From positions 62,001-92,133 of the forward strand of contig JYFJ02001086.1 of NCBI GenBank assembly GCA_000934665.2: a stretch of 30,133 bases of DNA. Reading direction: 5' to 3'. Position numbers and translations under genes: made by a program. Shown here piece after piece: positions 1,292 to 24,800 of this stretch. The notes under the pieces were generated by a model. It saw only the letters and a program-made list of their open reading frames with translations, was not told the DNA's origin and ran no database searches. This DNA is from Catajapyx aquilonaris (taxonomy: Eukaryota). Numbering within the stretch: the first letter of the stretch is position 1; the number at the start of each line of letters is the position of its first letter.

Positions 1292-2682
1292 GTAAGCTGT
1301 CGGGAATTTACAATGGAATATATATATTTTTAAAACTGTCCAGAGCCATTTTAAATTATCTGATCCAGTTGATCACTACTGACAACAATTCAAAGTTTAT
1401 TATACAATGCTGAAGAAACTCTAAGTGGAGTAAACGAGGTTCCAAGTTCTGTGTCCATACCATGTGAATGTCTGTGAAGATGTGAGAGTTTCCACGTAGG
1501 CTGCTCGAGGGTATGACCGATGTGTGAATCACGAGGAAACTATCGAGGCTTCTTTAGAACATGCACATACACTATGCTATCACGCAAGTATCAATTTAAA
1601 AGACAAACTTGCACATTGCATCCGCTCTTCCTCTAATCGCTCATGTAGAAAATGAAGCCAGAAAAAATATAGTGAACCAGCATATTTTGTACCGGACGAT
1701 AGCCAGCAAGTAGTTTGTTTTTCATCCAAAACGTGACGGATAAAAAAAGTGTGCCTAATTTTGTTATACTTCACGCGTTCATGAATTGAACTATACAGAC
1801 CCTAAGTTTCCGATTCCTGTTCTATATTTCACCCGATAAAATCTGGCGGACAAAACTAACGAACCACTGCACCAACAAGCGCATAAAAAAGATGAAAGGT
1901 GATTTAAAAGAGGACTCGTTAGCTCCATTGCTGGTGTTTGAACAATTCATTTATTGTAGACCACCATCACAGCTTGCTATGCTGGTCCTACCTACTTGGG
2001 GACACCAGCCCCTCAAAAATGGGGTAGGTTGTAAGTGATGGGCACTTTTGCACCCCGCAGTGCGTCACAGATGCAGAATGATATCTTGGCCATGAGCGTA
2101 TAAATTGGTTAGTGTCCCAGCAGCATGCAGTAGCTTTGGAGGAAAAATGATAATAATGAGCTCGTCCAGCACTCTCAGATAAGATCTTTAGAGAAGGATC
2201 CTTCATTGGGGATTCTTCCCACTCATTCTTGGTTATGGGCGTGTTTTTTAAGGTGATGTTCATGTGGGTTTGTACAAGTTCACTGCATCGTGAAATGTTG
2301 AATAAATAAGCCTGACATCTCGATGAAGGATGGCGTGGGAATTATACCTTGGCATTTTCCCCTGCCAGCTTTACACTTGACGGATTTTAGGAGCCAACAA
2401 AGGAGAAGGACCTTACAAGATTAATACTGCACCCTGTGTTTTTGGTACAAGTTAACGTTAAGCGCCAAAGACATCTCGCAGTTTTCGTCCATTTGTAAAG
2501 TAAATGCTCGCCCATAACAAGCGGCATTACTGTAATTTTCCCAGCGATCTTTGTCTGTGAGGTACAGGATGAAATGATTACATTGTTAACTAACCAGCTT
2601 GAGACCGAATGCCACCATGTTTCTAACAAAACCATGCCTGTTTTTCTGACATGTCTTGAAGTACTTTGATTGTTCCTTGCAG

Positions 2683-3172
2683 GTGTGGGAGTGGAGACAC
2701 CATCTGCTCGTGTTAATAGTGGCCGCATTATCTGCGGCCCAGCCTTCTGCCAGCCCTGGGCCGGGCCCTCCTTCACCTGCACCTACACCCCAGTACTTGT
2801 ACTCAACCACCCCATACTCGACACCGTCGTCACAACTGTCCTCACCACCTTCCCCGACTCCATCGTCCTTACCTCCCCACAGCACACCCGACCCAGAGGA
2901 AACAGTTGACCCGGATGACCCGGATGGTTGGTGGGCCGAAGCCGAGTTTTGGGACACGATTCAACCGGATGATGAGGATGAAGTATGCGATGGTGATACC
3001 AAAGGAGGGTGCGGTCCTCCGTGGTTTCCACCGCTTCCTCCGCCTCCACCTCTGCCGCCTGCTTTCCAGCAGCTTTACGGAAACAAAGAGGCATCGGCCG
3101 AAGGATTTGACACCTGCAACCTTTGTGCGTGGGCCAGAAGCAACGATTCGTCCGATCTTCTTCCATCGACAG
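2683..3172 (+). CDS. Coding exon of an uncharacterised secreted or cell-surface protein (signal-peptide-like segment, mucin-like P/S/T stalk, acidic Trp-rich segment, polyproline tract, CxxCxW motif)
   Basis: Acceptor tttgattgttccttgcAG (2681-2682) with branch-like TTCTGAC at 2644-2650, and donor AG|GTCTGT at 3172/3173 (phase 1). The frame is open and protein-like: VWEWRHHLLVLIVAALSAAQP...STTPYSTPSS...DPDDPDGWWAEAEFWDTIQPDDEDEVCDGDTKGGCGPPWFPPLPPPPPLPP...DTCNLCAWARSNDSSDLLPSTG. GC is higher than in the flanks and drops after the donor. It lies within the longest ORF of the window (2656..3249). Confidence 0.8.
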
Positions 3173-6100
3173 GTCTGTACCACTTGTTTGCTCTGACAGT
3201 CTTTATTAATTACAATCGCTTATTTGATACGTATATTATACCTTTTTAAAACCGGTTTCCCGTGAATGTTTCCCAGCACACGTTTATTTTTGGTTAGAAA
3301 TACAACTGAGCCCAACCAAACCGAAATGAAACGCGTTAATTGAACAAATGCTCCCTGGCTGGGATGGAAATGACCCGGTCTTTCGTATGAGCGATGTTCG
3401 ACCTACGCACTCCAGTTCACCTTCCAATTGGCTGAATCCACTGAACCATGAATCCGCCCCTTCCACATACACGTGAAACACTGGAATAGGCTACAATTAA
3501 ACCACGATATCCACCGCATCGATTCTACCACTGCAATCGTTCTCTGCCTCAGAACCCTCCACAACCCCTAACCCAACCCCTCCCAATATCCGCGGTCTTA
3601 ATGCACCCGGGACATGTCCCTACCGTAAATACTACCAACTCCCTGGCATTTTATTAGTAGTAGGCCTATTAGGAGGAGGATGGATGGGGAGGAGGGATGG
3701 GGATGCCGCAGAATAATGCGCTGGAATTCTGGGTCCCTCTTTTCCCTCTGTAGAGGCTAAAATGGCCGAATAGTAGTAAGGTGTGGGAGAGAGGGGTTGG
3801 GGAAGGGGACCCATATTCTCCAGCAGGCACACCGCGGTGCAAGGACTAATTGTGTTCCACTGATGATTTCTGACGCTAATTAACACCCGGCGCCCCTCGA
3901 CCTCCCTACCGAGTTATAGGGTGCGAGTTTGCGGAGTGGAATGGATGGGGGGAGGGGGAGGGAGTGTGCGGTGGGTTGGGGAAGAGGGTGGGTTGGTTGG
4001 TGGGTGAGGGATATGTGGAGTATGTGATTGTGTGTATGCTGTTGGAAGGGACATGGGAACGTGCGGTGTCGCTGCACAAATAAATGTCATTAGGGGACGG
4101 AATGGCGGCATAGCCTCTGCCCCATTCAAATTGATCATTTCTCTCATAATGTAGGACCACAAATCTGAAATCATAATTATCTATGTAATTAACAACAACG
4201 AAAAAAAATGAAATGACACATCAAGATATTTGGTATGATAATTCCAGATGTATGTTACACTGCACTTATCACATTAATCCTAGTGTCATTTTTGGGTTTG
4301 GCAGATTAATCTCTGAAGTCGGTAGTAATTATTTTCAGACTCTATCCACCCGAATCGGGGTTTTCCAGATGTTTTCTGGAAGTCCAACACGCACATATTT
4401 CAAGTCCAAACTTCGGCTTGATTTCCCTTTTGATAAACTGAGATTATTTTCCTAGGAACGTGTGCCACCACACAACCCAACTTCCAGAATAGAAATGATG
4501 ATGTAACTGCCAAACTCGGGTGTGGCAACGTAAAATAATTGCTTGTAAGGTTTCATCTCTGCTTCCATCGTATTAGAGTATCCTTTTTTGAAGACCCGGT
4601 AAAAAATACCACGGAAAGATAATTTTTAAATGCCACTGACAGGCACATTTCTTTTGATCAGAGTAGTGATGGCTTAATAATATATGGGCGGATGTCGAGT
4701 GGGCGGTGAGAAGGCATATTTTTCTTGCAGAGGAGGACTTGATTACAGTGTATTTATTCTGAACTAGAAAGTGTTCTCTTTAATGATTACACGAATTAGA
4801 TTTGCGGTTAGTTTTTTTCTTCACATGTCCAGGCGGCCACATTAGGAGGTTGTGAATAGTTCGAAGAAGTAACCATTACTTCTGAAGCTATCTGGAGATG
4901 AATACATGTGTTTTTTTGTTCAGCGTCAGCATAGATTAGGCGTGATAATTGGCTCAGAATATTGCGATGATGAAAATATACAATTATCACCAAAGAAGCA
5001 AAGAAATGGCAAAGATTCAATATTTGTGCACTAATTTACAAAACAAGCACATACTTAAACTGCCTGCCATGTTGGTTTAAGTAAGTGCTGTACAGTGATG
5101 TGTAAACCACAAATAGACCTACTGTGTAATCAATCATCAAATGCTGCCCCTTATTCCATTGCAGCACTGTTTACTGCAATGAGCTCATATTAATTGAGAG
5201 ACGAACACCGGCTGTGCCCCCTTAAATGCTGATTGGCCAGATATGACTTCTATCTGACTATAAATAAATAAATCATGCTAATTGAAATGTGACCATATCT
5301 GAGAAGTGACCTTATAATTCTGTAATGAGTTTGGACTTGTGAGCAGCAAAAAATTGTGGAGGCGGTGAAAATGAGGGATCAGGGGGTAATGGGGGGGGGG
5401 GGGGTGAGGTGGTGGCGGAGGAAGGTGAAGGGATGGTGCAGAGGACAATTTTACAACCCCTGTGGTATCACCGCCCATTATCCAAGCAACCCTATACGAT
5501 ACAAAAATGATGAGAATCAAATTAGGCGCAACTTAGTGGGGGTAAGCCAGCTTAATTGTCACACAGGATGATATGAAACCGGTTCCTGGGAACCATCCTT
5601 TTCAACACTTATCGTTGGGGAGAGTGAAGACGTTTAAGATGCCCCTTAATTTCCACACCTCTTTTTGGGCCAATTAGTGATCTCCTTCGCCATATGGATG
5701 GCATGACGATGACTAATGGCAATAGAACCGCATACCTCTTTGCAGGTGACACGAAAATTACACCCTATATAGCCACTCGAGATCCGGGTTTTCTGTCAGC
5801 CAGCTGGTAGAAAAGTTACAAATTGTGGATAGTGTGGTTGCAAGACCGAGTATGAAAATTAAGTTTTCAGTGTTAGCTAGATCCAGAAGTGAATGTGCAA
5901 GTTCATGACATATTAAGCCTTCATGTTATGAATGGTCTCAATTATGCTGGCGGTAAGTTTAATTTTTTTTAAACCTTAGTATATGGACCTATTTGCATAT
6001 GCTTGAGAAGTATGCTGTATTACTGAAAATAATGCTTATTTTTATATTTAATTTTATGTATTATCGCGTTAAAATGGATTTTAAACTTAATATGCGAATC

Positions 6101-7795
6101 TTGAATGGAAAATCACGGTGCTATTTGTGAGGCGCACACAGAAGCAGGCGTCAGCAACCCGAATCTTCGTGGCTTGATGCAGAAACTCAGGCGACACCTT
6201 TTTGTAGGTTTCGCAGTCTAGTCGTGGCAAAAAACCAGTTCCTGTTAAAGTTTTCGTTTCCAAAGAGAACGCCTACCTCCTGCAGGCACTAGCCTCGCAG
6301 GTAATTGGAAAAATTGAGAAAAATACTACACGCGGTGCTACTGTACAGAAAATCATAGAAAATACTCCAATATACTGTGCACTATACAGTATATAGACTA
6401 CATTCAAGTCACTCTGCTGCACTTTGCCGACATCCGTCGTCAACATTTTCCAATCGAAGACCTATCTTGGAGAAGTAACCATTACCGACCGACTTCTGCG
6501 GTTGGCGTATAACCACTTATAGGTCTACAGTGTACCTACATTTAAAAAAAAATGGCTTGTTGACGTGGCACTTCCTGAACTTCGCCTTATCAGCTAGTAA
6601 TCAGTAAATAGTACTTCCATCGTATATTCAATTTTAATTGTGTACTGTTTATGTGACAGTAAATATATGATAATACTGATGTTTAAGAAACATTCAGCAT
6701 TCTGTAGGTCGACTGTATATGTCGCCATGTATGGGCCTTTCGGTTTTTGCTACGGTATTTAAAAGCACATTCTCTGATGTAGTGTAAATGATCCTGTAGG
6801 TTTAGACTGTTTCCCCTCTGAAATGCCGGTTTTAGGAATAAGTATGAAGCTTACAAGCTGCTCAGTGCTCAGTTCTTGAAAATCCTTCTTTCACCATTTC
6901 CCATTTTAATAATCCCAAGGAAACCCCTCTTTACATAGCGAGGATCCATTCCGGCGCCTGGTAACTTGAGTAGCCATGCAAGCAGAAGCAGTAGTAAGCT
7001 ATAAAAATGAAGTAGTATGGCCGTGCGTTCCGGCATCACGCTGCTATACAGAGTAGAATATATGCCTGGCAGTCGAGTCATCTAACTGGGGGGCTGGTGG
7101 TCCTCCCCTAGTCTCCATCAGTGACATGGATCCCCTCCTCTGCCACTCCCTAATGGTAATCAAGTGTCGCAGCTGAAGAAACACCGCACATTACTACAAA
7201 AATCCCAGCCTGGCTCACCCCCACTAGGAATTCGGCAATAAAAGCCGAAGGATGCTGGGAGCCAGATAGTTTACTTTATTTGTATATTTTTTGGGTGTCT
7301 ATACATACATCTCCCGTAGTCTTTATTGCATTATGGTCGATCTCCCCCACCCCTTCCACAAGATTAGTGGCCTGGGGGTGATATGAAATGGAGGCCTTTA
7401 GCTGAGGCCATAAAGGACCACGGTTTTAGTGGGGGCGAGGGGGGAAGGTAGGGAGGAGGGCGTGTTAGATTCGCCCTCTCGCCATGCAACCCAGGCATCC
7501 CTTCGATGGTGTGCTTTGCCTGGCAATATATTAATATGAGGTCGAGGCGTAGATTGTCGCGTCTGTTCTTATTGATGCAGCCATGGCCTCTGAAGCAAAA
7601 AAGAAACAGGAGGATGAACTACCATTTTGGGAGATGGTGTTGAAAACCTGGTCCCCGAGCTTGTGATATACACAGACTGGCCAGCAATGACGGGGTAAAC
7701 AGGTAGAAATGCGACAAAACAAATAGTTGTGACCGACACGTAATGGAGGCTTTGAAAATGAGAAATTCAGGTTCTGCAGGCGAGTGAAGTGCGCA

Positions 7796-7822
7796 CCCCC
7801 CCCNNNNNNCCCCCCCCCCCCC
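7796..7822. other. Poly-C tract containing 6 undetermined bases (N at 7804-7809)
   Basis: Seen directly; a sequencing or assembly ambiguity within a homopolymer. Confidence 0.95.
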
Positions 7823-10800
7823 ACGGCAAATAGAAAATCCCTGTGTGGTAGGATTTATAACCATCGGTACACGTTCCGTGAGAAGGACGCGTTAGGGGTC
7901 CTATTTGTACTCTCCAATGTCACTACGCATGCTATGCAGGGAATTTTAACAGCTAGCGTGAGAATTAGTCGCATTCCAAGCCATTTCGTGCACACGGGGC
8001 TAATGGAAAACCTCCTCCACTCGCTCTGCATCATTCACCTTCCACAAGACGGAATTGCGATACTACCTTTCTTCTCCTCGTTTGTTTGCAGGAAGCACCT
8101 GCAGTCTGCTGTGCTTCCATAATGCGATGTTCTCTGCTGGGACTTGGGTTATAAATGCGATACCCGCGGCATAATATTCACTCGGAAAATGGGGGAGGGG
8201 GGATGAGTAGGCCCTACCCATGAAACCATAATGATGAATTTGCATGTGTATTGCAAACTGATAAAATAATACAAACACCATTTATTGGCAACAAGCAAAT
8301 GCGAATAATGATTAGCGTATATGTTTATATCGTTTGTTTTGTGGCGTGCTGTGGTTGACGTACCTGTTGTGTGCACACGTATGTCGATTTGACACTTTTT
8401 TCTGACATGGGGCTTATTCCACCGGCCAGGTTCGTCGTGAATTTTCCGGTTATACAAGTATGAAATACATTTAACCAACTATTTTAAACAGCGACTGTAG
8501 GTTAAATCCACTGCTTGAAAGGCGCTAAATTGTAGTTTGACTTAACTCCCAGTTAAAATAACTGGCCAGTATTACATTTCATATTCAATGTTCGAGACAT
8601 GCTGAAATAACGCGTCAACACACACTATAGTACAGAGTGCCAAAGTTACAAGGAAAACGTGATTTATGAAATCCTGAAAGCCTTGGAATAATCCAAGCCA
8701 ACCCTGATCCCTTTTAATGATCTCTCGTGCCTCTCATTTTCTCCTCTAAACAGGTGTTTTAATGCAATTAGGTTCAGTGCGGGATGAATGGTTCCATAAA
8801 AGTTGAGACGGTACCCTACTTTGAAGTGGTAAGAACGCATGTGCTCGCACCTACCCGTCCCTTTTGATGATAACATCTTTTATTCGGGCCCAGTGAAATG
8901 CGGCACCGCGTTACTCCATGGCAAAGCCCGTATGAAAGGCAATGTCATCAGCAACTACTCATCGTCCTGACACCGCGACGAATCCTCGCCTTGTAATTTG
9001 GCGGTTGGTCCGGAGAAGAACGTATTCATGCAGCAGACTCGGGGCGCCTGTACACCTCCTGGTATGCGTATACGAGGGCATCGGTCTAGTGGTGTCCAGA
9101 ACAAAAGATCGTCGGACCTGGCGTTGTCACTAGGCCTAGCAGCACTGGCGGCTCGCTGTAAGCCCTCCATTAAATCTGCCTGATGAAGTGGTCCGCCTGC
9201 CCACTCCATAAAGTTGTATACTTTATAAGCGGCATCCATGAACAAGGTCGTAAAGTTATCTCGGGAGTGGAGCCGGGGGATTGGACATGCATTTCCACAC
9301 ACACCCTCCCTTAGGCCTCTTCTCCCACGTCATAACCCTGTCACAAATGGTATGCATCTGCGCTCTCATTTACCTTCGCCGATTCTTCTCCTTCTGCTGA
9401 TTGATTCCAAACTGAGGAGGGAGGGAAAGAGGAGATGGGGGTGGGGGGAAAAGAGAGGGACGAGAAACCCCTGAGATAGGATCGCAATTCCGGCCTGGAA
9501 CCGACCTGTCAGTTCGGAGCCCGAGTTGAACACAAAAACTTGCTCGACGTCTTCCCCCAACTAAACCTCCCTCCAAGTACATGGAAACGAGTTCGTCTCG
9601 TTCGAGTTAATGCACAAAATATTTTGTAAATAGTAAAAAGCATCGGTTGGCAGCGGACCAGGCTAGTTTCGAGAAAGTTTGAACCAGGCACGCAGCCGGC
9701 GCCACATTTGCAAATTTGGTGGGGGGGCCATAATTATTCGTTCTTAGTGTAATCCCCTGGCCCACTCCTGACCCAAGTCCCAGGTTTTGGCGGTGCCCTA
9801 AATCCACATGGGGTACCGCGCGAAGAGCCCACACGAGCCACCTGGCTCCCCGTATTGTTTACCCCAGGAACGAGTGCGTAATGACTTCATTATCCCTTGT
9901 GTTGGGTGGGCTTGGCCATGCGTGCTAACGGAGCCCTCCTCGTTATAGGTGGCGCCTCAATCCAACAGCACAAAACCCCCACCATGCTAGCCAACCCTGG
10001 GGCTACTTTCTGCCGGCTTCCCGCATAATCAAAGGGCGCCTACACCATGGGGGCCTTGCTTTTTTCGGGACCCCTTTTTTTGTACCTTTCTTCCAGAACC
10101 ATGGGGCTTAGGGGCACGCCTGGAATTACTCCGATTTGTAGACATTTTTCACATAATGCCGGTGTTTCCAATGCTGGAAAGTGGAGCGCCATGTTGTAGG
10201 AGGGGAAACGAGGCCCACCTGCCGCACGCTTCCTCACTGATGATGATGAAGACATTCTTGTATAGGGGCCTGCAGGGAATGGATAGTGCAGGTGCAAATG
10301 CACGCTAATACAAGGGAGTATCCATACCCCAGGATCAGCAACAGGTGTTTTGCCTGGATACTTTTTTTTTAAAAAAAACAACGTGTGTTGTAATCATATA
10401 TATCCTACTAAAAAGAGCAGCAGGGTCACCAAAATGGCGTTAGATACCGCTTACAAATGAAGACAAACCCTTGCGGTAATGAGCAGAACTGGGAGACAAA
10501 TGCACGGTTTAGCTGGTATTAAAATTAATTGCACCGACTTTGCTTGTTTTGCATGAATTTGGGATCGACCCAGGCAAAAACTCTGGAAGGGGGAAAAGGA
10601 GATGAACTGGGAAGGCAGACAGGAATGGGGATGCTATTGCTATAGCCTACCAAAGCGGCGAAAAATAAATTACCGCCACCGTAGTTTCATTATTTGCACA
10701 AAAATTGGCGTTAATTTATGAGAAGGGAGATGGATGCTGAAGGACTAACAGATTAACGCGATAATTTTGATCCCTAATTTACTTCAGCCTGACACATTTT

Positions 10801-12970
10801 TAGATAACGTGCAGGCACGCGATTATGTGCAATTTTCTGCACACCTAGCTCTTTCCGAAAGTAACTGCCGAGTATGATGATGTATTAGGGCCCAAAATCG
10901 ATATGGGAATCCCCCTAACTGCTTTATTTTGCACAACTGCATTATTTTAAGTGCCAGTACATTATTGATCAACGTCACTAAGGTATCCTGGCGTTTCCCC
11001 TCTTGTCCCCAGACACACTTGTCGAGGGTAAAAAAAACACACACACACCCACACAAAGGTAGCTCTTCTTTGAAATGAATTATTACTCACCGCGACTTTG
11101 TGATGCCATAAAAACGTTATAAATGAGATGGCGGATGTTATCAAAAGACAGGAGGTTCTAAGAATACACATGGTGGTATTATGCAGGTGATAGCCCACCC
11201 ACCTGAGCTTCTATGAATTACGTGTTCATCTGACTTTAAAACAAGCTACAACGTAGTTAGAAAAGCATCTAAATATTTACCTGTAAGCCACTAGGCATCC
11301 TTCTTAATAATACCGTAATTGGAAGTTTTTCTCACAATATTATTCCGTGCAAGATTTATGTACGATATGAGTAGAGTGCCCCAATTTTTTATCACGAGGG
11401 CTGATTTTTAGAGCCTTCTGCATTAGGAACGAGTGCTTTTGGAGTAGAGCCAGCTTATTAGTCTGTCAGAGTCAACCTGTCACCAGTTATATCTCGTAAT
11501 GTATGTCTCTTGGTAGGGAAGCTCATTTCCTGGATGAAAGGGACATGGAAATGGCCGGCGCCTAAGTTCGGTGGGTCACTGCCAAGAGTCTTGGGATAGG
11601 GTCGGGAATCAACTGGAGCTTCTGGGGAAGAAATAATAGCTCGTTTGTCCGAAGCCGCTTTAAAGAGATCAAGTTTGATATGGATGATGAGGGAAGAGGG
11701 TAAATAAATGTATCCTATTAACGAGAGCCAGTCAGGTCTTCAGATGTATATTTTCCCTATCAGTCGCCTTAACAAGGTGTCTGGTATTTTTCTGGAACCA
11801 TCTGTACTTTTATAGCCCACTAGCCGTGCGCGCTTAATTAAGGACATGCCTTTATATGAAGCATAAATGTTCACGATTGCTGAAGGGAAGTACTTCAGGA
11901 AACATAAAACAGTAGCAGACAGGATCACAAGGTGACTCGATACTTTCAACAAAAAAAAAAGGCGAGGAAAAATGGTGGGGCCGGTAAAGAGTATGAAGAA
12001 ACACTGGATACCCTACCCTTCAATTTCTATCAGGTGGCAGGAAGTAGCGTCTGGCGTTCTAGAGCGGTGTCCTAATTGAGTTATTAATCCCACCTGAGAC
12101 GCTGGCGAAGAAGAAGAGGTGAGGGGGGGGGGGGGTTAAGAAGGGGGGAAAAACTTGCAGTAGAGCGTTACGAGTACGCGGTAATATTGCACGTTCATGG
12201 AGGAATGCTTCTTTTTTCGCACGCACCGTGTATACCCTGGGCCTTCATACCGGTTTGGCAATGACGAGTGGTAAATTTCTGCCATCAACTGACCGAAACA
12301 AGCATTAGGTATCCCCCAACTTAAAGAGTAGGGGAGGGGAAAAACCCAAGGCGGGGATAAATCGTGCAGGCGAGAATATGTGGAAATTCTGAAAGGGCCC
12401 CCTGCCAGGCTCATTTACCATCCCAAAACATGATTTTTATTTGGAAGAGTAGGCTTATAATGAGACTAATGAAACCATAAGGAGAGAAGTTGTGCACTTG
12501 GCATGTGTACAGGGCTCTATGCACAGGCGCCAATCTCAAATCAAATGGGCTCTAGCCCGCACTCAACCTGTAAAACAACTTGTGTGCTCAGCAACATGCA
12601 CAACAAGGCAAAGAGATGGAAGGAGAGGTGCTTGACTCTTTTCTATGCGGGATTAGAAATACCCCCAGTCTCACTTGAGGCCGCTGCAATAGCTGGCCCA
12701 CCGGGGTGAATGAGATCACCTTTTGGATTATGTGCTCTGAATGTCCTAATGTAGCTCAATTTCCTCTATGGTCCCATTTACACCCAACGGGACAATGTTA
12801 ATCTATTCTATTCTATTAAAAGTATAGTCTATATTATTAATTTAATTGGTTTTGGTATTATTTAATTGCTAATAAATAAATAATATTTGTTCATCAGTAG
12901 ACTATTTTTACTATTTGTTTTAGTAGGCTATATTAATTGTTAATTAACAAATAATATTGTTTATTAGTAG

Positions 12971-13077
12971 ACTATTATCAATAATATTAATATTATTAGT
13001 TTTACTATTATCAATAATATTAATATTATGACTTTTACTATTATCAATAATATTAATATTATTAGTTTTACTATTAT
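12971..13077. repeat. 33-bp AT-rich minisatellite, about 3.2 copies (ACTATTATCAATAATATTAATATTATTAGTTTT)
   Basis: Units are at 12971-13003, 13004-13036 (2 substitutions) and 13037-13069, with a partial unit from 13070. They sit in a strongly AT-rich island at about 12800-13155. Confidence 0.9.
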
Positions 13078-16000
13078 TTAATTATTAATTTTGTTTTATA
13101 AAGAAAGTCGCTTAGCAGCATATGTTTTGTGAAAATATTATAAACTATTAGGTTTTTTTGGGGGGGACCGGAAAAGCGACTTTCTCTACCGGTTTCCTCA
13201 ATATTGGCCCAGCTACTTCTTGCTCATTTCAAGCACATTTCCGGCGCGGCCAAATTACGGAAATGGAAATTAGCAAGTACGAATTTTGGCCTCTCTTGGC
13301 AAAGTTTGAATTTCCCAGGAAACGGTTTTGCCTAGGGGGAAAAAAAGGGTGGGGGCTGGATGGCATCGCCTTTCCGATGACCCATTGATTATTCCGGTCG
13401 GAGGAAGAAGTTTCGTCAGTGGGAGAGGAGCTTTGGCACAACCTCCCCTCCCCCCCCCCTCCCTATTTGCAAATGAGGATCTTTCAATATGCAGGCGCCG
13501 CACCATCCATAGAGGACTGTATTATTATCATTTCAGATAGAGAGGCGGACCAGAATCACAATTGCACAGTCGCAGCCACGCAGTTATTGGCTTCATTTCC
13601 GCTCCGGTGATTTTCTTCCCTCAAGTCATTCTAGCGCCCACAGGAAGACTAGGGGTCAAGCAGATGGGAACCAGTTCTCTTTTTATTTCATTACTTTTTT
13701 TTCCAATGATGTTGCGGGCAAATGGACGAGCGCCTTAGTAGCGACAAAAAGTAGTTGCGTCCAAATACGGAGGGAAAGCCGTCCACCAGACGTTATTAAT
13801 GTGTTATTGAAAGGAGCAGTGAGTGATTGAACCTCTTTTAATAGGGTACATCAGGGTGGACCAGATTTTATCACTTAATCCCAAAATTGGCCTATTTGCT
13901 TTCGATAAATGATCCGACCTAGTGGCAGTCAATTCGATCCAAATGCGAATAAAAACATGCGAACAAGGCAATTCAAGCATTTTAATAAACTGGAAGGGGG
14001 TCATATTTGTAACAAGGAATCCTTTGCCACACTTTCGAATATTGATCCTGCGCCCATGAATTAACATTAGCGGGCCAACATGCTACATTTTGGGTTGACG
14101 ATCTATCGGAGCGCAAAATGGCTATGTTATCACAAAGTAATCATGGAATGATTACCTGAATGGATGCGGACCCTGAGGGTGTTATCACATAATCACGAGT
14201 AGTTGAGAAATGAGGGCTGCGATCGAAATAAATGTCAGCCTCTGCGCACCGAGATTTTTTAAACCAGCATATGCCTTCCAGTGAATTTCTCCAGTAAAAA
14301 AATGCCTATATTTGGATGCCATGATTCGATGCGGGGCTTGCAGATGCAGACGAATAATTGAGCACACTTTCAATTATTTAAAATTTGATTGTTGGAAAGT
14401 GTGGGCAGACCAATGGGGAAAAATGCACTTATAATAGGGCAAGGGTAATAGTTTGTATTGCCGGGAGTAAGTTTTAATAGCGAGTCAATCAGTTTAGTGC
14501 GTTATCATGGTGTGCCAATAGTCTACATCATAACATCCAGTACTATTCATCGCGGGCGCCAGATACCGCTTCATTTACACAAGCTGGTCCGTCCGGTGAT
14601 GATAAGACCTGCTCTTAATAATGCAAAATCCGCAGGAAAAATGTTTGCTTAATATTTTATTCAAAGTAACTTTTACGCGACATGTTTTCATGCCTCATTA
14701 CATCAGTAGGAGCTATAGATAGTCAGCCCCCCTTCCTCAGCAGCCCAACTCGGAAAATGTCAAACCACCAAATTTAGACTATATTATTCCGGCAAGTTAC
14801 AGTCCCCAGTGGTACCCCATCTGCCTATTGAATTTGCAACATCCGAGAAACATCAGGCACACCGCCACAGCACCACTATCCATAATGTAAGAAAGTGCTC
14901 CAGGAGGCATTTGATAGCCTTGCTCCCGGGTAAAAATGAGACCCCAAGAAACGGTCGTTGTTGGACCCAGCCTGGTCCAAAATGCAGACGGGTCTTTATA
15001 TAGGTGTTGTGGCGAGATGATTCGATTTGTAATGTAATATCTGCTCGGCATGAAGGCATCAGGAATAGGAGGAAAGGGGCTAGCTTTTGGCCTGGCAGAA
15101 ATTCCGTGCGCAACAAGACCAGGTTTCGGAGTCGATACTCGGAAGCCGCTTAATTATGCATGCATAAGTGAAGAGCTGGTTGAAAGTGGAGAGAGGCATG
15201 CCTACTCACTATCAGAATGTTTCCACTGCCTTTCTACCCTACTTCATATGAAAGCAGGTCCGGGTTCTTATATCATCCCGCTGAACACTTCCGCTTGGAA
15301 GCCAACTGCACCGGGCCCAACTTGAATAGGAGGTTTAATTTTTTAAATGGTGTACTCACTTCAGCGTGCTTCTGGCAGGCCTGGAGAGCCACCATGCAGT
15401 ATAATGAGACTTAGTTATTATAGACCGGGTGCTGATGTAATGAACGACTGCGTAGGATCACACATGACTTCAGCACATAATTAGCAGCTAGTCTTAAAAA
15501 GCATATGGTGGACCTAGCAACGTCCAATTATTAGAAATGCAGGGTATTTATAAGTATACTGCATCTGACGTGCATGGTGTTTCCAGGCAGAAAACGACAC
15601 TACAGGTAAAAGCATTTTGCTGCATCCGGCTGTGAACCTGTAACTTATTCAGGAGTAATGCTGAGTGAAAATCGTATACAAGTGGAAATTATATTTTTTA
15701 AGCGCTATTTGCGGAATGAAATCACTAATGTTTTTATGTAATTGGGCACAAATATTGAGCAAACATTATTCAGAAAAGCATTTTAAGAAACGGAGAAGTT
15801 GGAATGAAAAATTCAACTGAGTCGAAAAGCACTCAAAAAATAATTGTGAGTGGACTGGTATTGAATGGAGCGCCTGCATGAAATAGTTTTGGGCGAATAA
15901 AGAGAGTCGATTGTGTTTCAGCCCTTACAGGAGGATGGGCTACGCACATTTTATCGGAAATTTTTCTAAGGACCCACACTGCTCAACCTTAAATACTAAG

Positions 16001-16741
16001 AAGCATGCGGGTTCATGTCAACAATGATTAAAAGACAGTCATGCGGGTCCCCTGGACTGGAAACACGCAGATGAGGGCTACAAACCAACAGAAAAGCCAA
16101 GATGAAAGTTGGAGACGCTTGAAGTTGACAGCCTCAAGGTATGGGGGAAGAAGGGGACAAAATGAAGTTGCTTTAGGTGGGAAAGAGTTCGAGGCGTGTA
16201 GGCGGAAAGTCAAGTCAACTTAGTGAAAGGATTCTAGGGGTTGTTGTGTAATAGGTATCTTTTTTCACGTTTGAGATCAAGGATAAAATGGTTTGATGCC
16301 CTTCTGCGCCAGCGTTGCAGTTGAAACACTCTGAAATAGCAGAAGAGTGAGTTCACCCTAGCTGGAGCTGTCTTGGAAGCACAAATCCATCAGCGGGCAT
16401 TTTTTCCCTTCAGAGAGGCAACTCCCAGCCCGCAATATTATTCCGCCAAATATGTCACTGCGTTGTTTGGGAGATAAAGTAACGGGGCGTCGTCTATGTG
16501 ATGCTGGTGGGAGGAGCTTCGTTTGCATGCAAATTACGCAATTAGTCCCAGCACGAGCTCTCCTCTTCGCCATCTGCTCAATGCACCCCCTCGACTACCC
16601 CCCCCCCCCTTCCCACCCAACTCCATCCCAAACCACTGCAGGAATCCTGCTGAGATTTCTTTCTTGGGTGCATGTATCTGCCTACTGTGCGATGGGCACC
16701 CCGCTATATTAGCCTCACAAGCAGGGTTGGATCTCTGGCGT

Positions 16742-16780
16742 ATAATAATAATAACAATAATAATAATGATGATGATGATA
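16742..16780. repeat. Compound trinucleotide microsatellite (ATA)n/(ATG)n
   Basis: ataataataataacaataataataatgatgatgatgata seen directly. Confidence 0.9.
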
Positions 16781-16932
16781 TCTGATAATACTAATTTATT
16801 TTTACACCGTGATAGGGTGGAGCCCTTTTAGGGGGGTGGCATTAACGTCAGTTTTCTTCGATTTTTTTTGACTCTTATACTTCACACATGGGTGGGGCCA
16901 AGGATAGGGACGGAAGGAAGCAGCTGCGGCCT

Positions 16933-16962
16933 AACAACAACAACAACAACAATAATAATAAT
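16933..16962. repeat. Compound microsatellite (AAC)6(AAT)4
   Basis: Seen directly. Confidence 0.9.
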
Positions 16963-17443
16963 AAGAAGCAGGAATTTTCATGAATAGTGCACAGCCGCGT
17001 ATTCAAAGGTAGTTGTTTCGTGGTGATTTAGACAAACTTACAGTATAATAATGGATTATTCCGTGATAGTCCAACAGCTGGAACTGCTGTAGGTAGGGCA
17101 CAGGTCGGTCCAGTACTCGCCTTTGCAGAAAGCTAGGTGAAATATCCGGGAGGGAACTAAAATCGTGTGGCTGAAATGGCACCAGAGGAGATTCAAGATG
17201 GAGGTAGAAATGTTCAAACATAAGCTAACATATTAAGCTCGTTCGACATTACTTGGAGGTGGACCTCAACTGGCAGGAATCAGATGTCCAGTAACCCATC
17301 CGAAGTGTTTAGGCACCATTACCAACCATAGGTATACAGTATTAGTCGGCTGACGGTATGTCAAATCTCTTCCGCTATTGGTTGCCATGGCGCAAGCAGC
17401 AGTGGTAACAGAAAGTCAGTAACATCGGCATTGTTGTTACCAA

Positions 17444-17515
17444 GGCCCGTTGGTCTAGGGGTATGATGCTCGCTTCGGGTGCGAGAGGACCCGGGTTCGA
17501 ATCCCGGACGGGCCT
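17444..17515 (+). tRNA. tRNA-Pro(CGG): tRNA-Pro, anticodon CGG (intronless, eukaryotic type)
   Basis: GGCCCGTTGGTCTAGGGGTATGATGCTCGCTTCGGGTGCGAGAGGACCCGGGTTCGAATCCCGGACGGGCCT. Acceptor stem GGCCCGT/ACGGGCC pairs 7/7, anticodon stem CTCGC/GCGAG carries CGG at 17476-17478, and T stem CCGGG/CCCGG has loop TTCGAAT. It has A box TGGTCTAGGGG, B box GGTTCGAATCC and no encoded CCA. Closely matches the conserved metazoan tRNA-Pro sequence. Confidence 0.97.
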
Positions 17516-17519
17516 CACC

Positions 17520-17526
17520 TTTTTTT
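17520..17526 (+). terminator. RNA polymerase III terminator (T7) of the tRNA-Pro gene
   Basis: A run of 7 T starts 5 nt after the discriminator base. Confidence 0.85.
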
Positions 17527-17645
17527 CTGTGAATATAATAATATTTTCTTGTGTAATTAACTGCATTTGTGGCTTTCACCGACACAGGGGATTTTTTAAA
17601 TGTGACACGATGCCGTTCTCCCATATACGGGCACATGAATATGTA

Positions 17646-17875
17646 CAGGGTGTCCACAATGAACATCCCTGGTTTCAACTTGCTACCATTACGCAAGTTA
17701 CTGGACGATGGTGTCGAAATTGTACACATACGAAGGTACACTCATCAAGTTTATGTAAAAAAAAACAGTAGCCTTCCACGTGTGCTCCTTTAGTAGCAAT
17801 CACTACATTAAGCTGATAATCTCCCTCCTCAGAGGTTCTCTCCGTCATGTCAGGGGTGATGGAGGACATCATTAT
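17646..17875 (-). mobile_element. Degenerate 3' end of a Tc1/mariner-superfamily (Tc3-like) DNA transposon: terminal inverted repeat plus transposase C-terminus
   Basis: TA (17644-17645) followed by CAGGGTGTCC is a typical Tc1/mariner terminus at a TA target. About 120 bp inside, the minus strand (17875-17768) translates to IMMSSITPDMTERTSEEGDYQLNVVIATKGAHVEGY, resembling from memory the C-terminus of arthropod Tc3-like transposases (SITPDML.R.W.E.DYRLDVCRAT.GAH.E). Orientation and spacing to the TIR fit a 3' end. It may extend to about 18025 (LLWG motif, uncertain). No matching second TIR. Confidence 0.75.
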
Positions 17876-18809
17876 TTGGGCTGACCACTTTAGTTGCATA
17901 CTCTCTGTCTTGGAGTTGTGGGAAGTTGAAATTTTAAGCATGTCCAGCACTTCCACCACACAACTTGTGTTTTTCCCTCTGTAGATACTGTTTGCATCTT
18001 CCAACAGCATCCCCCACAGGAGCACCCATCACATAGAGCATAGACCATTCCAAAAATTCAATATGAAACTTGTTGAGACTCCAGACTGTTTAAACAACAA
18101 AAACCCTAAATACCTCTGCATTTCTATTTTTCGCCGCTTTTTGAAACTAGGGAGGTTCATTATGGATAGCCTGTATAGTCACCTCAATTGGCACCAAAAT
18201 TGCACGGATACGTTTGCATTTAATAATTCATGCCATATATCATAAGAACGGCTAATTCAAGAGCTATAAGTGGGTATAATAAATACCGGTATAAATGAGC
18301 GAGTAAAAGGTAAAACAGCATTAAATTTTTTTGAAGGCCCAATTTTAAGCACATAAAGTTTTCCGATTTTTCTCATGATTGTGTGTGGGTAGCAAAAAAA
18401 GTCCAGTGTCGAAATGATTCTGTCCATCAGAAAATAATTTAAAACTGCGATTGCAACAATTATTTAATTGTTATTAAGCAACAATGCGAATCCGGAAAAG
18501 CCGCTGGGCGCAGGAATTTGGGCGGCCTAGGAACGCAATAACATTATTGCAAGATACATTTGTGTTGGGTGGTTTATTTCATTACATTGTTGGAACAATG
18601 ATTGCATGTGTTGGAGCCGGTAAAGTAAGTGGGTATAACTCAAGTGACACCAGTAAGAATTGAATATGCATGAGCAGTTTGATATTGTCACTAATGGAAA
18701 ACAAACGTTGAAAATGTGAGAACCGCCCGCACAAAATATGATCATTGCTCTTTGGGCTGTAAAATTCCAGGTAAAGCAAACAACGACAAGAATCCGCTTG
18801 TGTGTAATA

Positions 18810-18839
18810 TATAACCTCTCTTTTTTATTTCAGGTGAGT
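18810..18839 (+). promoter_or_regulatory. Candidate recursive splice site (juxtaposed 3' and 5' splice sites, CAG|GTGAGT)
   Basis: Branch-like ATAAC (18811-18815), polypyrimidine tract ctctcttttttattt, CAG (18831-18833) and then immediately GTGAGT (18834-18839). There is no other AG between 18791 and 18831. Same strand as the upstream exon. Confidence 0.6.
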
Positions 18840-21800
18840 ACAAAGAGGCAGAGATTTGGGGTCGGGACCACGACGCATGCAGGACAAGTGCAGGTCGACA
18901 AGGTAGGGCAAGAGTTAGGGCTTAGGGATGGACAAGCGGCCAACGCCCTGCGTCTCCAAGGGCTTTTTCTTCCCAAGTCTCCCGTGTGGCCAGGCTTTGA
19001 GGAAGGATAGACGGCATTCCCGCCTGCGCATCCCCACGGGGAGCCCAGCGGGGCATCCGGGGCGTTGGCGTAAAATATGACGATTTGCGCAGAATGCACT
19101 CCCGTGATTTATGGAAACGCGACCGGAACTGCTAAGCACGTTTCGCAGCTTCTGATCAAACTCGGATGGAATGCGATTCATTGGCCCCAGTGCTGGGTCC
19201 CAATTTGTGCTCATCTCTAGAGTGCACTCAATTACGTGGGGTACAGCAAGTATTCAATGAGTTGGAGAGAAAGGATGGGGGTCTTTTGGTCAAGGATAAA
19301 GGGCGAGCCCGAGTCTGTTGCAAGGTATTGTTTCAAGTAGGGCAGCAATTATTGAGAAGTCGATGGTTTTAAAAGTAGCTGCAATTTAGCACTTACAGGG
19401 GCGGAGAAATGGGGAAGAAACGAATTGCTTCGTGTCATGTTTTTAAAATAATGAATTTGATCAGATTATGCAACGTAACATTGTTTTTTAGTCTACTGGA
19501 GTATAACAATTTCGACTAAAACGTGACTATGATCGTTCTGCATTTTAGTTCATCATATAATTTCCCAATTAATTGCTTTGGGCTCATTTTCTGTTATGCA
19601 ATGGCGGCTGATAGCAGCATCATAATTTTTCATGATTGGAAGGTGCTTGTAATTGTAACAAGATTTGATGACGATTGGCTCACCCTGTACATTATCGTGA
19701 AGCTTGACCTGCTCTGTCTGCACAGTGCAGTAATTCTAGCACTCGGCAAACAACCCTCTCCTAGCCCAAAATCTGCAGTATCCACTACCATTGAATGAGG
19801 ATAAGTACATCCCATCATCCGTTTGGGTCCAGAGAATAATGAGGAGGTGGTGTGCTGAGTAACTTCAGAGGAAATTGCTATTCGGCGTATTCACAAAGGA
19901 TAATTAATTAATGACTGTCGTCGTCTCGGCGACGTTTCACCTCGACTCAAAGTTGAGTCTAGTCCTGAGACTTTTTCACCCTCCATATATAGATACAGTC
20001 GATACGTATAGTGTATAGACTGTCTCCCTTCCAGCCAACGGTGCAACGGGAGGGGATCCCTGCCTTTCGCAATTGATGGATGACGAAAGCTGATGCGAAT
20101 GTCCTCCTCACCAAGTTTCCGCCTTAATTGAATCGTAAGGAGGAAATAAATGAGGCGGCATTAGCAGGCCATTTCTCTTGGCTGATGCCTGCACTATTTT
20201 TATAGCAAGTTCTGACGCTGTTCCAGCAGACCAATTTTCCTTTCGGCCCTCGATTGGAAATGTTATAGGGACTTTGACACCTACTAAATCCGACTCTGGA
20301 TGGCTATTGCCAAACTGCAGCAGCGACACCTAATGCATTTATACTGGGGGAGCTAGGGAAATTATTTGCCGGGTTCAAACTTACTAATTGGTTCGTGTCC
20401 AGGTGGCTTTGCTTTTTAATTACCCGCACAATAGGATGAATACAGTGTAATGACACCTGCTGGCATGCTGTGTTTAACCAGAATCTCTTCCTGTAATTAG
20501 TCAAACATGTCCGCGCCTAAACGTGTCCTCTCTATCCTCACAATTGGACACGTATTCCGCGTAGAGTATTTGTAGAGAAAAAAAATGTATATGATCTTAT
20601 GTCACCATAGGTATTGATTCTGGATTTTTTCAGTGGCCTCGGCAACCGTGCTTCTGACATAAATCGGAAAAAAATGTGCACCGAATGAGCAGGATAACAT
20701 GTGGTACATGTGTAGTCGTGTCAATTGCTTATGTAAAACCTGCAACTGCTAATGTGTATATTACATTTTACTCGTAGTAACAGGTACTGAACGTTCTATT
20801 GGGAAGCCTTTTACAGCATTGGAATGAGATTCACCTTTGCAATGACCGCTTAAACTGGCGTAATGACGTAGGATACTGCATTCATTAGAGTGAATGCAGA
20901 GATCCAATATTTGAAATGTTGGACTTGATGCTGCTTATTTGTTTATGTGCAGTAATTTTGCATCAGTGACAATGAGGGAAACAAGCATACACTCACAAAA
21001 CGGATTTTTGTCTGGGTTGCTGTTCCGGGTTTTTCAACCACATACCCGTAGGCGTATCAATCAAAAGGTGGAAATACTTTAAGATTAACGCATAGAGAAG
21101 CAACATTATCAAAATGATCTACAATATGAGGTGAATATGAGTAAGGCGATGTACAGCACCGATTTTTTCTTCTTCAAATGATACACGAGTCTGCGGAGAA
21201 GCATAGCACCAAGGTCCAGTTGTATGAACGGAAATAAGGGAAAATGTCTGATTATGTTCAAACATTCACAACGCTGTAATCCGACAATTTCTTCTATAGT
21301 TTGCGATGCTATACAACCAGCCGTAACTGATAAAGCACATTTGACATTAGTAGCAAAAATTCAACTCTGATTTCACCATCTCACTTCATAAGCTTCATGA
21401 GCCAAGTTTCTTTTCGGTCCTTCTTCGCCTGTGAGAAGCGCCGGGGCAGACAATAAGAAAGAAAGAAAGAAAAAGCCCAGTGGCTGTTGAACACGGACGA
21501 ACGTGACTGAAAATCCGGTGAAAGAGGGAAAGTTGCTTACTGGGGGCGGGGGTGGGGGGTGGGCCGTGGCTTCATATCCGGTCCGGGGAGGCTCTCATTT
21601 CGAACAAACCAACCTCCTCGTCTACTTCAAACCTTTGAAAAGTTGCCGTTAATAATTGTCTGGGTCGTGGAAAGTTCTTCTCCCGCAGCTGCACCCCCCT
21701 CGGAATAACTTGATCCGAATCGCGCTTGTCTTCGCCAGATCTCTTTTCCCAAGCCGCGAAAACAGCTAATATGGCATTCTGCAGCCTCCCGAAGCCACCA

Positions 21801-24800
21801 GTCCAGGTCAAACATTGATGAAGAAGAAAGTTTCCGGAGGGAGCACAAGAACAAAAAAAAAGAAGAAGAAGAATAAGAAAAGAAAACCCGCCTCCCCTGC
21901 CTGCTTTCCTTCCTCCGCAAAAGCAAAACGGCGAAACTAATCTCATTAGCAAGCAAAATTCCTTCGCTTGGAAGCAAGGAAGGAAGTCTTGTAGACCCAC
22001 CCAGATGATCATAATTCTGTGCCAGTCTCGTAATTCTCTCGCAAGAATCGCGGAGTCAGTGTTGAAATCACTCCCGCTGGATTTCAGGACGCGTGTGAAA
22101 TAATTATCGGGCTTCCCTCCCCTGCTGGAGTGTTGCACTATTAAGCGGATGATTCAGGCCCTGGTTTGCCATACGGTACCTTCGGATATAGGTATGGTGC
22201 GTAAGATTATTACAGACGCTTTATTATTGCCCATATTGATACAAGAGAGCAATCAAGGGGGTTCCCCACTAGGGACGAATCCCGTATCGCAAATCGAAAT
22301 GGAAGAAATATCGAATTTCTTGGAAATGTCTCCAAAAAAGGACAATCAATGTCAATATCACACACGAACATCGGAAACTGGATAGTGCACAATAACGGGT
22401 TGCACCGCCCCCAGAAAAATTTGCCAGCTGCAAAAGTGACAGAAACGTTTGTTGTTCATGTTGCTTTCTGACTACTTTTAAGCTGACATTTTTCTGGAAG
22501 AAGTGCAACTGGACTTAAATATTGCAAATCTCAAATTCGGTGCATGGGTGTGTGTATATTTACTGATCACGCGACAATGCGTCCTAGACATATCACACCC
22601 TTGTTTATAATGAAGTCAACATAGGAACGCCCTTAGAATGCATTACTAGAGGGTGTGGGTAATTACTCTGCTCTTGTGAACAAGTGCAACGTAATTAGGT
22701 CGCGATGGAGACTGCCGGATATGGGGAAACATGTGACTGAGGAGCGGTTTAGGAACGGTAGTCGGGCGTAAAAGCTTGCGGCGTGTTGGGCCGAGTGTTC
22801 GTGCTGCCGCTTAATTGGTAGGCCATCCAGCTCTTGTAATAGCAGGTGCCTGGACTTGGGATGGGGGAGTCCCAGAAAACCGGAGCGGAACTAATGGAAG
22901 GTGACAGCAGCAACGGCTTCAAGAGTAGGGGGCCCTCACCTCTCTCTGCACCACTGAGGAGGACCATCTCGGGTTCCGCAGGCTGTGGCCAACGCTTGGG
23001 TTACCCGACTAATCAGGCACCCCCTGCACACATCACCCCTGGATGGGAAAGAACTTACTTTGGTTATTAAATTGTCAAGAGTCATTTAACAGGCGGTGTT
23101 GGGGACTAATGGCCACTGAGTGTTCTTCAGTGGGGAGCGGGGGGGGGGGGGTCAGAATGTCACTCTGCCATCATCCGGCTTAAAGTCAACTCTGTTGCAA
23201 GGCAGACATGGAAGTGTTATTTTTATCCTGGCGTATGTGCGAGAATTTAAGCTTGAAGAAAGGTGTCACTCGTCTTAAGAAACCTGAATTGCTAGTTTAT
23301 AGGGGATGTGGAGGCAACACACAGCAGTGAAAAATTTGAGGTTGCTGGCATTGTCTCGAGGACATCCTTTCTCTACATATTATTTGTAGATAGGGGGAAA
23401 AACCACTATACCAAACATAGGTACACCTTTCCCAACGACTGTAGAACCGTTCCACCCACCCCACCCTCGGTCTTCCCGAAAATTACTAGCCTTCAACCCA
23501 CCCCGTCCGCTTCCCGTCCTAACACCTTGTCCTCCGTTTTTTGATCATAACAAGTAGATATTTGCATGTTGGACGTGTAATTCCAACTTCGAGAAACCGG
23601 ATGTACGGAACTTTTTTCACCTTCCTCTAGTGTGCTACGTTATCAATATTATTGTGGCCAGATAACATCGCACTTGCTGAAGATAAGATCGGAAATTAAT
23701 TTTGATCAGCAGCTGATCCATTGTTACGTCTCGGTGTAATGTCACTTCCCTTATCACTGACAGTATTACCGAATCACTGCATTTGTGTATCCGGTCCACT
23801 CACCTGAGCCACGGTAGCTGTCGATTGCAAGGATAAAAATCGGTAAATAAGCCGGTTCGCTCGACAAATTATGTAACACAACAAAATAATAGAATGTTAT
23901 GAGACTAATGGGGAGGGGGAAATGGAAAGCGTTATCACCGGCATCTTGAATTAATCGTGTCATGGTGGGAGGTGCGGGGAACAGTCTGAAATAGGCCTCT
24001 GGCCCCGTTCGGCTCCAGTACGGTACATTCAAGAGGTAACTTGGGATCTGCCCCGGGTTGCTCTCCATGGTGCTACATGATGTACATTCCTAGCTTGGAA
24101 CGCTGGCAGGCTGTATTCAGATGACTTGATCCAGTGTGTTAGAACCTTGTGGGCACCTGGGCCGGACCCTTAGACCCCATCTAGCATGAAGGTAGGCCGA
24201 AAGGTGGATGTAGTCAGGGCCAATGTGGCGGCGTTGTGGGGAAGGGGAGGTCTCGGTTGGTGCGGGCTCTGCATGCATCGGTGGCCGTCTGCTTCTGATC
24301 TCCGTCAGATAATGAGCCCACCATTGGTTACCAAGGGGTCTTAGACAATGTAGGCTTACACGGATACTCCCGCCTCTCCCCTTCCTCGACTCCACCTTAT
24401 ATCCCAGAAAAAAAAACTGGCATTGCATGCACTCTGTAACTGAAAATTTACTGTAGTTTTACAAACAAAAATGTAGGTCTCTGCGTATAGGATCGGGAAC
24501 GGTTGTGGTGGGTGAGTGAATACACAATCAGCAGGATGACAATCAAATGCAGTAACATGGTGATGGATAATTATAAGAACATCATCCAAAGTAGCCTGCA
24601 TTTTACATGATTGTCCATTTGTGAAAATTTTCATTTCATTTGGCCTGACAGTAACACATTGCGAATTAGCGACATTTTGAACTCATTTCATACAGGCACT
24701 GACCGCTCTTGTTTGTAAGTTTTAATCTAGTCAATCTGTTAATTAACCCTCCCTGGCGCGCATTACAAATTCAGCAAAAGGCTGCACCGCGACAATGTCG

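Follow-up and report, generated by a model that had tools for sequence, protein, structure and literature searches.

A ratchet-point-like acceptor/donor composite in a Catajapyx aquilonaris contig, weighed against recursive splicing, ordinary exon use and fortuitous resemblance

Recursive splicing is already known, and its best-described sites are the ratchet points of Drosophila, of which 197 were reported in 130 introns of 11,341–132,736 bp, with removed segments of 16,368 bp in the median (10.1101/006163). T was found at both -5 and -6 in 196 of these 197 sites, the branch points lay mostly at -36 to -21, the sites were strongly conserved, and just 6% of the fly introns above the minimum size were counted as recursive (10.1101/006163). 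This share was raised to 63–70% or more for very long fly introns, according to the accessible portion of Pai et al. (2018). As described in the available part of a further source (PMC8605326), a short cryptic exon (~50 nt), the donor of which is usually the weaker one, belongs to each ratchet point; flies have more than 500 intronic ratchet points, and in mammals nine fully suppressed ones are definitively noted, together with many expressed recursive exons.

The site considered here lies in a 30,133-nt stretch of Catajapyx aquilonaris DNA (GCA_000934665.2, contig JYFJ02001086.1, forward strand, positions 62,001–92,133), hereafter the window, in which all positions are numbered from the first letter. 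On the + strand, an AG-free zone of 41 nt (18791–18831) leads into a CAG acceptor (18831–18833), and within this zone a branch-like TAAC (18812–18815), the second A of which stands 20 nt before the acceptor G, is followed by a polypyrimidine tract (18815–18830; 15/18 pyrimidines at -20 to -3) with T at -4, -5 and -6. A GTGAGT donor (18834–18839) directly abuts the acceptor and, with the CAG included, agrees with MAG|GTRAGT at nine of nine positions. All the elements named in an earlier, sequence-only reading (the branch-like TAAC, an AG-free zone of ~40 nt, a strong tract and CAG|GTGAGT) were therefore present on this strand, as was the ACAG|GTCTGT boundary, at 3172|3173, to which that reading had joined the site. 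The distance from the donor at 3173 to 18834, which it had put at ~15.7 kb, was measured at 15,661 nt on the same strand; as the AG|GT boundary of the composite is 18833|18834, the correct notation of this junction is 3172 to 18834. When the 224 AGGT sites on both strands of the window were ranked by pyrimidine count plus donor matches, the composite came first, with 6/6 donor positions in addition to its tract and AG-free zone, which upholds its description as the best AG|GT composite on the + strand. AGGTGAGT occurred just once more in the window, at 23798–23805 on the - strand; this second occurrence had a poor tract (10/18) and an AG-free zone of 12 nt, and is no comparable composite. In the repeat search of the window, the site at 18834 fell outside any repeat, and a 24-base pattern across it gave 0 matches in metagenome contigs.

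Several of these features are shared with Drosophila ratchet points, namely the juxtaposed AG|GT, the pyrimidine tract with T at -5 and -6 and the strong donor that would be regenerated at 18834, and they all count for a true recursive splice site in + strand pre-mRNA, as does the branch-like A at -20, although this position falls just outside the -36 to -21 range of the fly branch points (10.1101/006163). Similarly, the candidate segment, at 15,661 nt, differs little from the median reported for flies (10.1101/006163). A weaker donor, AAG|GTAGGG (18903–18908, + strand; 7/9), is found tens of nucleotides downstream and could define a cryptic exon of the kind described for flies in the available part of PMC8605326. 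Under this reading, an upstream exon (that ending at 3172 or one of another + strand gene) would in a first step be joined to 18834 through exon definition, with 18834–18902 as a cryptic exon of 69 nt; in a second step, the regenerated CAG|GTGAGT would outcompete AAG|GTAGGG, and the cryptic exon and the remaining intron would be removed with no trace left in the mRNA. The match of 9/9 at the ratchet donor versus 7/9 at the donor at +69 fits this model of donor competition. Exon definition with a downstream donor, donor competition and a possible inclusion in the mRNA are also what would link the site to the recursive exons of vertebrates (Sibley et al. 2015 and Blazquez et al. 2018, both as given in the available part of PMC8605326); in contrast to these, the long gene at 18834 is putative.

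Other points of the comparison speak against recursion. The would-be cryptic exon keeps the frame and is open, in contrast to its fly counterparts, which are generally out of frame according to the part of PMC8605326 at hand; in the same part, just nine fully suppressed mammalian ratchet points are definitively noted, which makes the prior outside flies low. In favour of recursion, very long introns of flies carry such sites in 63–70% of cases or more (Pai et al. 2018, accessible portion). Unlike the fly sites, the candidate at 18834 is known from sequence alone, and its host intron is putative and has a rival in a compact gene model. If the + strand were transcribed through 18834, the site would fit fly ratchet points on sequence criteria; on the whole, we consider a true recursive splice site at this position unlikely, although a serious candidate, and the specific recursive step from 3172 to 18834, which makes up a part of that likelihood, clearly more doubtful.

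In order to judge the composite against chance, its core and its full form were considered separately. The 8-base core AGGTRAGT occurred at chance frequency, with two matches on both strands of the window versus 1.47 expected and at least two matches in 49 of 100 shuffles. The full composite was defined by at least 15/18 pyrimidines, 6/6 donor positions and at least 40 AG-free nucleotides, and was searched for in sequences simulated with first- and third-order Markov models from the window's own statistics (400 trials each). It was reached in 0/400 first-order and 1/400 third-order sequences; without the AG-free rule, the simulation means were 0.0075 (first-order) and 0.02 (third-order). A semi-empirical estimate, in which the number of strong acceptor-like sites (15, among 3,451 AG dinucleotides) was multiplied by the frequency of GTRAGT (24 in 60 kb), gave an expectation of 0.006 composites per window. 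With relaxed settings (at least 13 pyrimidines, at least five donor positions and at least 20 AG-free nucleotides), one site was found versus 0.74–0.91 expected. The full composite would thus arise by chance about 0.0025–0.02 times per window, or ~0.2 times per Mb, and these rarity figures are optimistic because the thresholds were fixed post hoc at the observed values; the site itself had been chosen post hoc as the best in the window by the sequence-only reading. Both the composite motif and its rarity are matters of observation, and an expectation of just 0.003–0.02 per window counts for recursion. At ~0.2 chance composites per Mb, however, tens to hundreds would be expected in a genome of hundreds of Mb, and a perfect AG|GT composite cannot by itself establish recursive splicing.

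The host intron would start at the 3' end of a putative coding exon of 163 codons plus one base (2683–3172, + strand). This exon is preceded by a good acceptor, and nowhere in the window was 3-base periodicity stronger: of the 583 segments scored, one exceeded it, and that one overlapped it. Its codon-position composition was typical for Pro/Ser/Thr-rich coding sequence, and its product would consist of a signal-peptide-like start, a Pro/Ser/Thr-rich stretch and an acidic, Cys-containing part. The coding-like periodicity and the in-phase open frames are observed features, and 2683–3172 is probably a real coding exon. No relatives of the encoded protein were found at E<=0.001 among 1,835,955,588 representative proteins, the Pfam search of the exon returned a single sub-threshold match (17.5 bits versus a cut-off of 34.1), and, of the 152 pattern stretches matched in metagenome contigs, none was confirmed. 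The proposed donor, GTCTGT (3173–3178, + strand), matches the consensus at 7/9 positions when the exon side is included, departing from it at +3 (C) and +4 (T), and is weak over its intronic part (4/6 positions).

Three models are compatible with the sequence downstream of 3172: a very long intron, a compact gene and no splicing at 3173. The sequence-only reading had placed the site inside an intron of >27 kb starting at 3173, a size that the window does not accommodate, as it allows at most 26,961 nt of putative intron past 3172; the premise appears shaky, resting solely on no other exon having been noticed. In the compact model, a possible first coding exon of an ATG and five further codons (2235–2252, + strand) would end at the donor AAG|GTGATG (at 2253; 7/9 match), in phase with 2683 and separated from it by a 430-nt intron. 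At its other end, an acceptor-like site at 3552, 380 nt past exon 2683–3172 and provided with 13/18 pyrimidines and a 61-nt AG-free zone, would open a rival terminal exon (3553–3716, + strand), in which 53 open codons in the exact phase left by exon 2683–3172 run up to a TAA stop at 3714–3716. Depending on the frame, the 380 nt in between hold 5, 5 or 8 stops. The peptide encoded by 3553–3716 continues with more Pro/Thr-rich sequence, followed by a hydrophobic 17-mer (mean Kyte-Doolittle value of 1.70) and charged residues. We rejected this transmembrane-like stretch as distinctive support, since 12.7% of 715 background peptides were equally hydrophobic. Poly(A) signals were present on the + strand at 3496 and 4079 (AATAAA at 4079); they were likewise discarded as support for a gene end, given that AWTAAA occurred at chance frequency in the window (66 found versus 67.8 expected).

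Taken one by one, the individual supports of the compact model are not significant. Nevertheless, for the gene of exon 2683–3172 we regard this three-exon model as at least as good as an intron of >27 kb, and the resulting gene (2235–4084, + strand) could possibly encode a lineage-specific small single-pass membrane or secreted protein with a signal-like start. In the third model, read-through without splicing at 3173, the frame would stay open to a stop at 3250 and add a moderately hydrophobic tail, and the sequence neither supports nor excludes it. Under either the compact gene or read-through, the site at 18834 would be outside an intron of the gene of exon 2683–3172. The stretch 3500–4100 is of low complexity, C-rich/G-rich on both strands and with proline-rich open frames on both, and includes a 13-nt GGAGGAGGGATGG repeat at 3675–3703; weak tblastn matches to exon 2683–3172 are inflated because of this low-complexity stretch.

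Hints of transcription were also sought in the surroundings. Over 3173–24000, G exceeded C on the + strand (skew of +0.048, z of 4.6), which counts for recursion, and T did not exceed A (-0.015). Strong acceptor-like sites numbered 10 on the + strand versus 5 on the - strand of the window. Both the GC skew and the acceptor excess would fit + strand transcription, and we take them as weak hints. The window has a G+C content of ~44% and a CpG observed/expected ratio of 0.72, values that point to an animal; this ratio is neither Drosophila-like nor vertebrate-like, a point against recursion. Pfam searches of the open reading frames of at least 70 aa gave no independent indication that a + strand gene extends over 3.2–30 kb: among 125 stop-to-stop frames of that size, 124 had no match at E<=0.01 and one had two sub-threshold matches. 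On the strand of the composite, and 1.3 kb upstream of it, is a canonical tRNA-Pro(CGG) gene (17444–17516, + strand), which scored 58.4 bits in Rfam. The only repeat family found in the window was an AT-rich minisatellite at 12.8–13.1 kb (12950–13089; a 33-nt unit in ~4 copies, matching at 89%, with periods of 3 and 15 nt nested in it), and a run of six N at 7804–7809 marks a small assembly gap.

The same downstream donor allows another reading, in which the acceptor at 18833 would open an ordinary or alternative coding exon, about 18834–18902 (+ strand), that happens to start with GTGAGT, with the internal donor suppressed and the exon kept in the mRNA. At 69 nt, this possible cryptic or expressed recursive exon has a length divisible by three, and it is open in the exact phase left by exon 2683–3172, so that, with 3172 joined to 18834, the frame runs open for 29 codons past the split junction codon; the 7/9 donor follows at 18903. 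Such an arrangement is, however, not rare in the window, as 6 of 46 acceptor-like sites on the + strand likewise have an in-phase donor of at least 7/9 at a distance >0, and three of these six give lengths divisible by three. The EAEIW of the encoded peptide echoes the EAEFW of exon 2683–3172, which speaks for an ordinary exon, and these two were the only matches to [ED]AE[FILVMWY]W in the six-frame translation of the window. The echo was rejected as not significant: in a background of 2,974 peptides, 12.0% and 6.9% scored as high. Expressed recursive exons are known, for instance the 51-nt Ubx microexons (PMC8605326, available part), and the m1 and m2 microexons of Ubx are likewise short in-frame exons that start with a donor consensus right after the acceptor; in contrast to 18834–18902, for which the open frame is what argues for coding, they are described there as ultraconserved and experimentally shown. 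No homolog was found, and donor strength alone would predict skipping of 18834–18902. An ordinary or alternative exon at this place seems to us improbable.

The best explanation, to which we give about an even chance, is that the composite at 18834 is an unused splice-site look-alike or is used at noise level. According to this explanation, a 3' and a 5' splice-site consensus, both very good, would adjoin fortuitously at 18833|18834, in non-coding DNA for which a place in an intron of the upstream gene is putative. Counted in its favour are the chance frequency of the core, the ~0.2 composites per Mb together with the post hoc choice of the site, the weak donor at 3173, the negative protein and Pfam searches and the elements of the compact model. 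That gene would be the compact one, running from the ATG at 2235 over the donor at 2253, exon 2683–3172, the 380-nt intron and the acceptor at 3552 to the stop at 3714–3716 and the AATAAA at 4079, and its transcription would stop ~14.7 kb short of the site. Any use of the splice sites, the compactness of the gene and the absence of a function are all points that we infer. A strong motif in non-coding DNA is what the site would have in common with unused or noise-level matches and with dual-specific AGGT intron sites, as described in the available parts of two sources (PMC10809524; 10.1101/2024.12.11.627982). It is, however, much stronger than typical decoys, and for this reason a function of the site cannot be dismissed; its agreement with the sequence criteria of fly ratchet points is similarly counted against a look-alike, as are the segment length near the fly median, the weaker donor at +69, the GC skew and acceptor excess of the + strand, and the lack of individual significance among the supports of the compact model. 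Other readings, beyond a look-alike, recursion and an ordinary exon, take up the rest.

With regard to its significance, the site at 18834 is at best one more instance of recursive splicing. The fullest form of the idea would be a fly-type ratchet point in an animal from outside both the drosophilids and the vertebrates, with an in-frame, translatable 69-nt recursive exon that combines stepwise removal of a long intron with an optional 23-residue insertion in a lineage-specific secreted or membrane protein, and we hold it to be rather improbable. The lesson of the locus is that assumed long introns should be weighed against compact gene models first. If true, recursion at 18834 would extend the known recursive splice sites by one, from an animal lineage that has been little studied, and provide a rare case of an in-frame recursive exon, and it would be useful for asking how far fly-type recursion has spread beyond flies and vertebrates.
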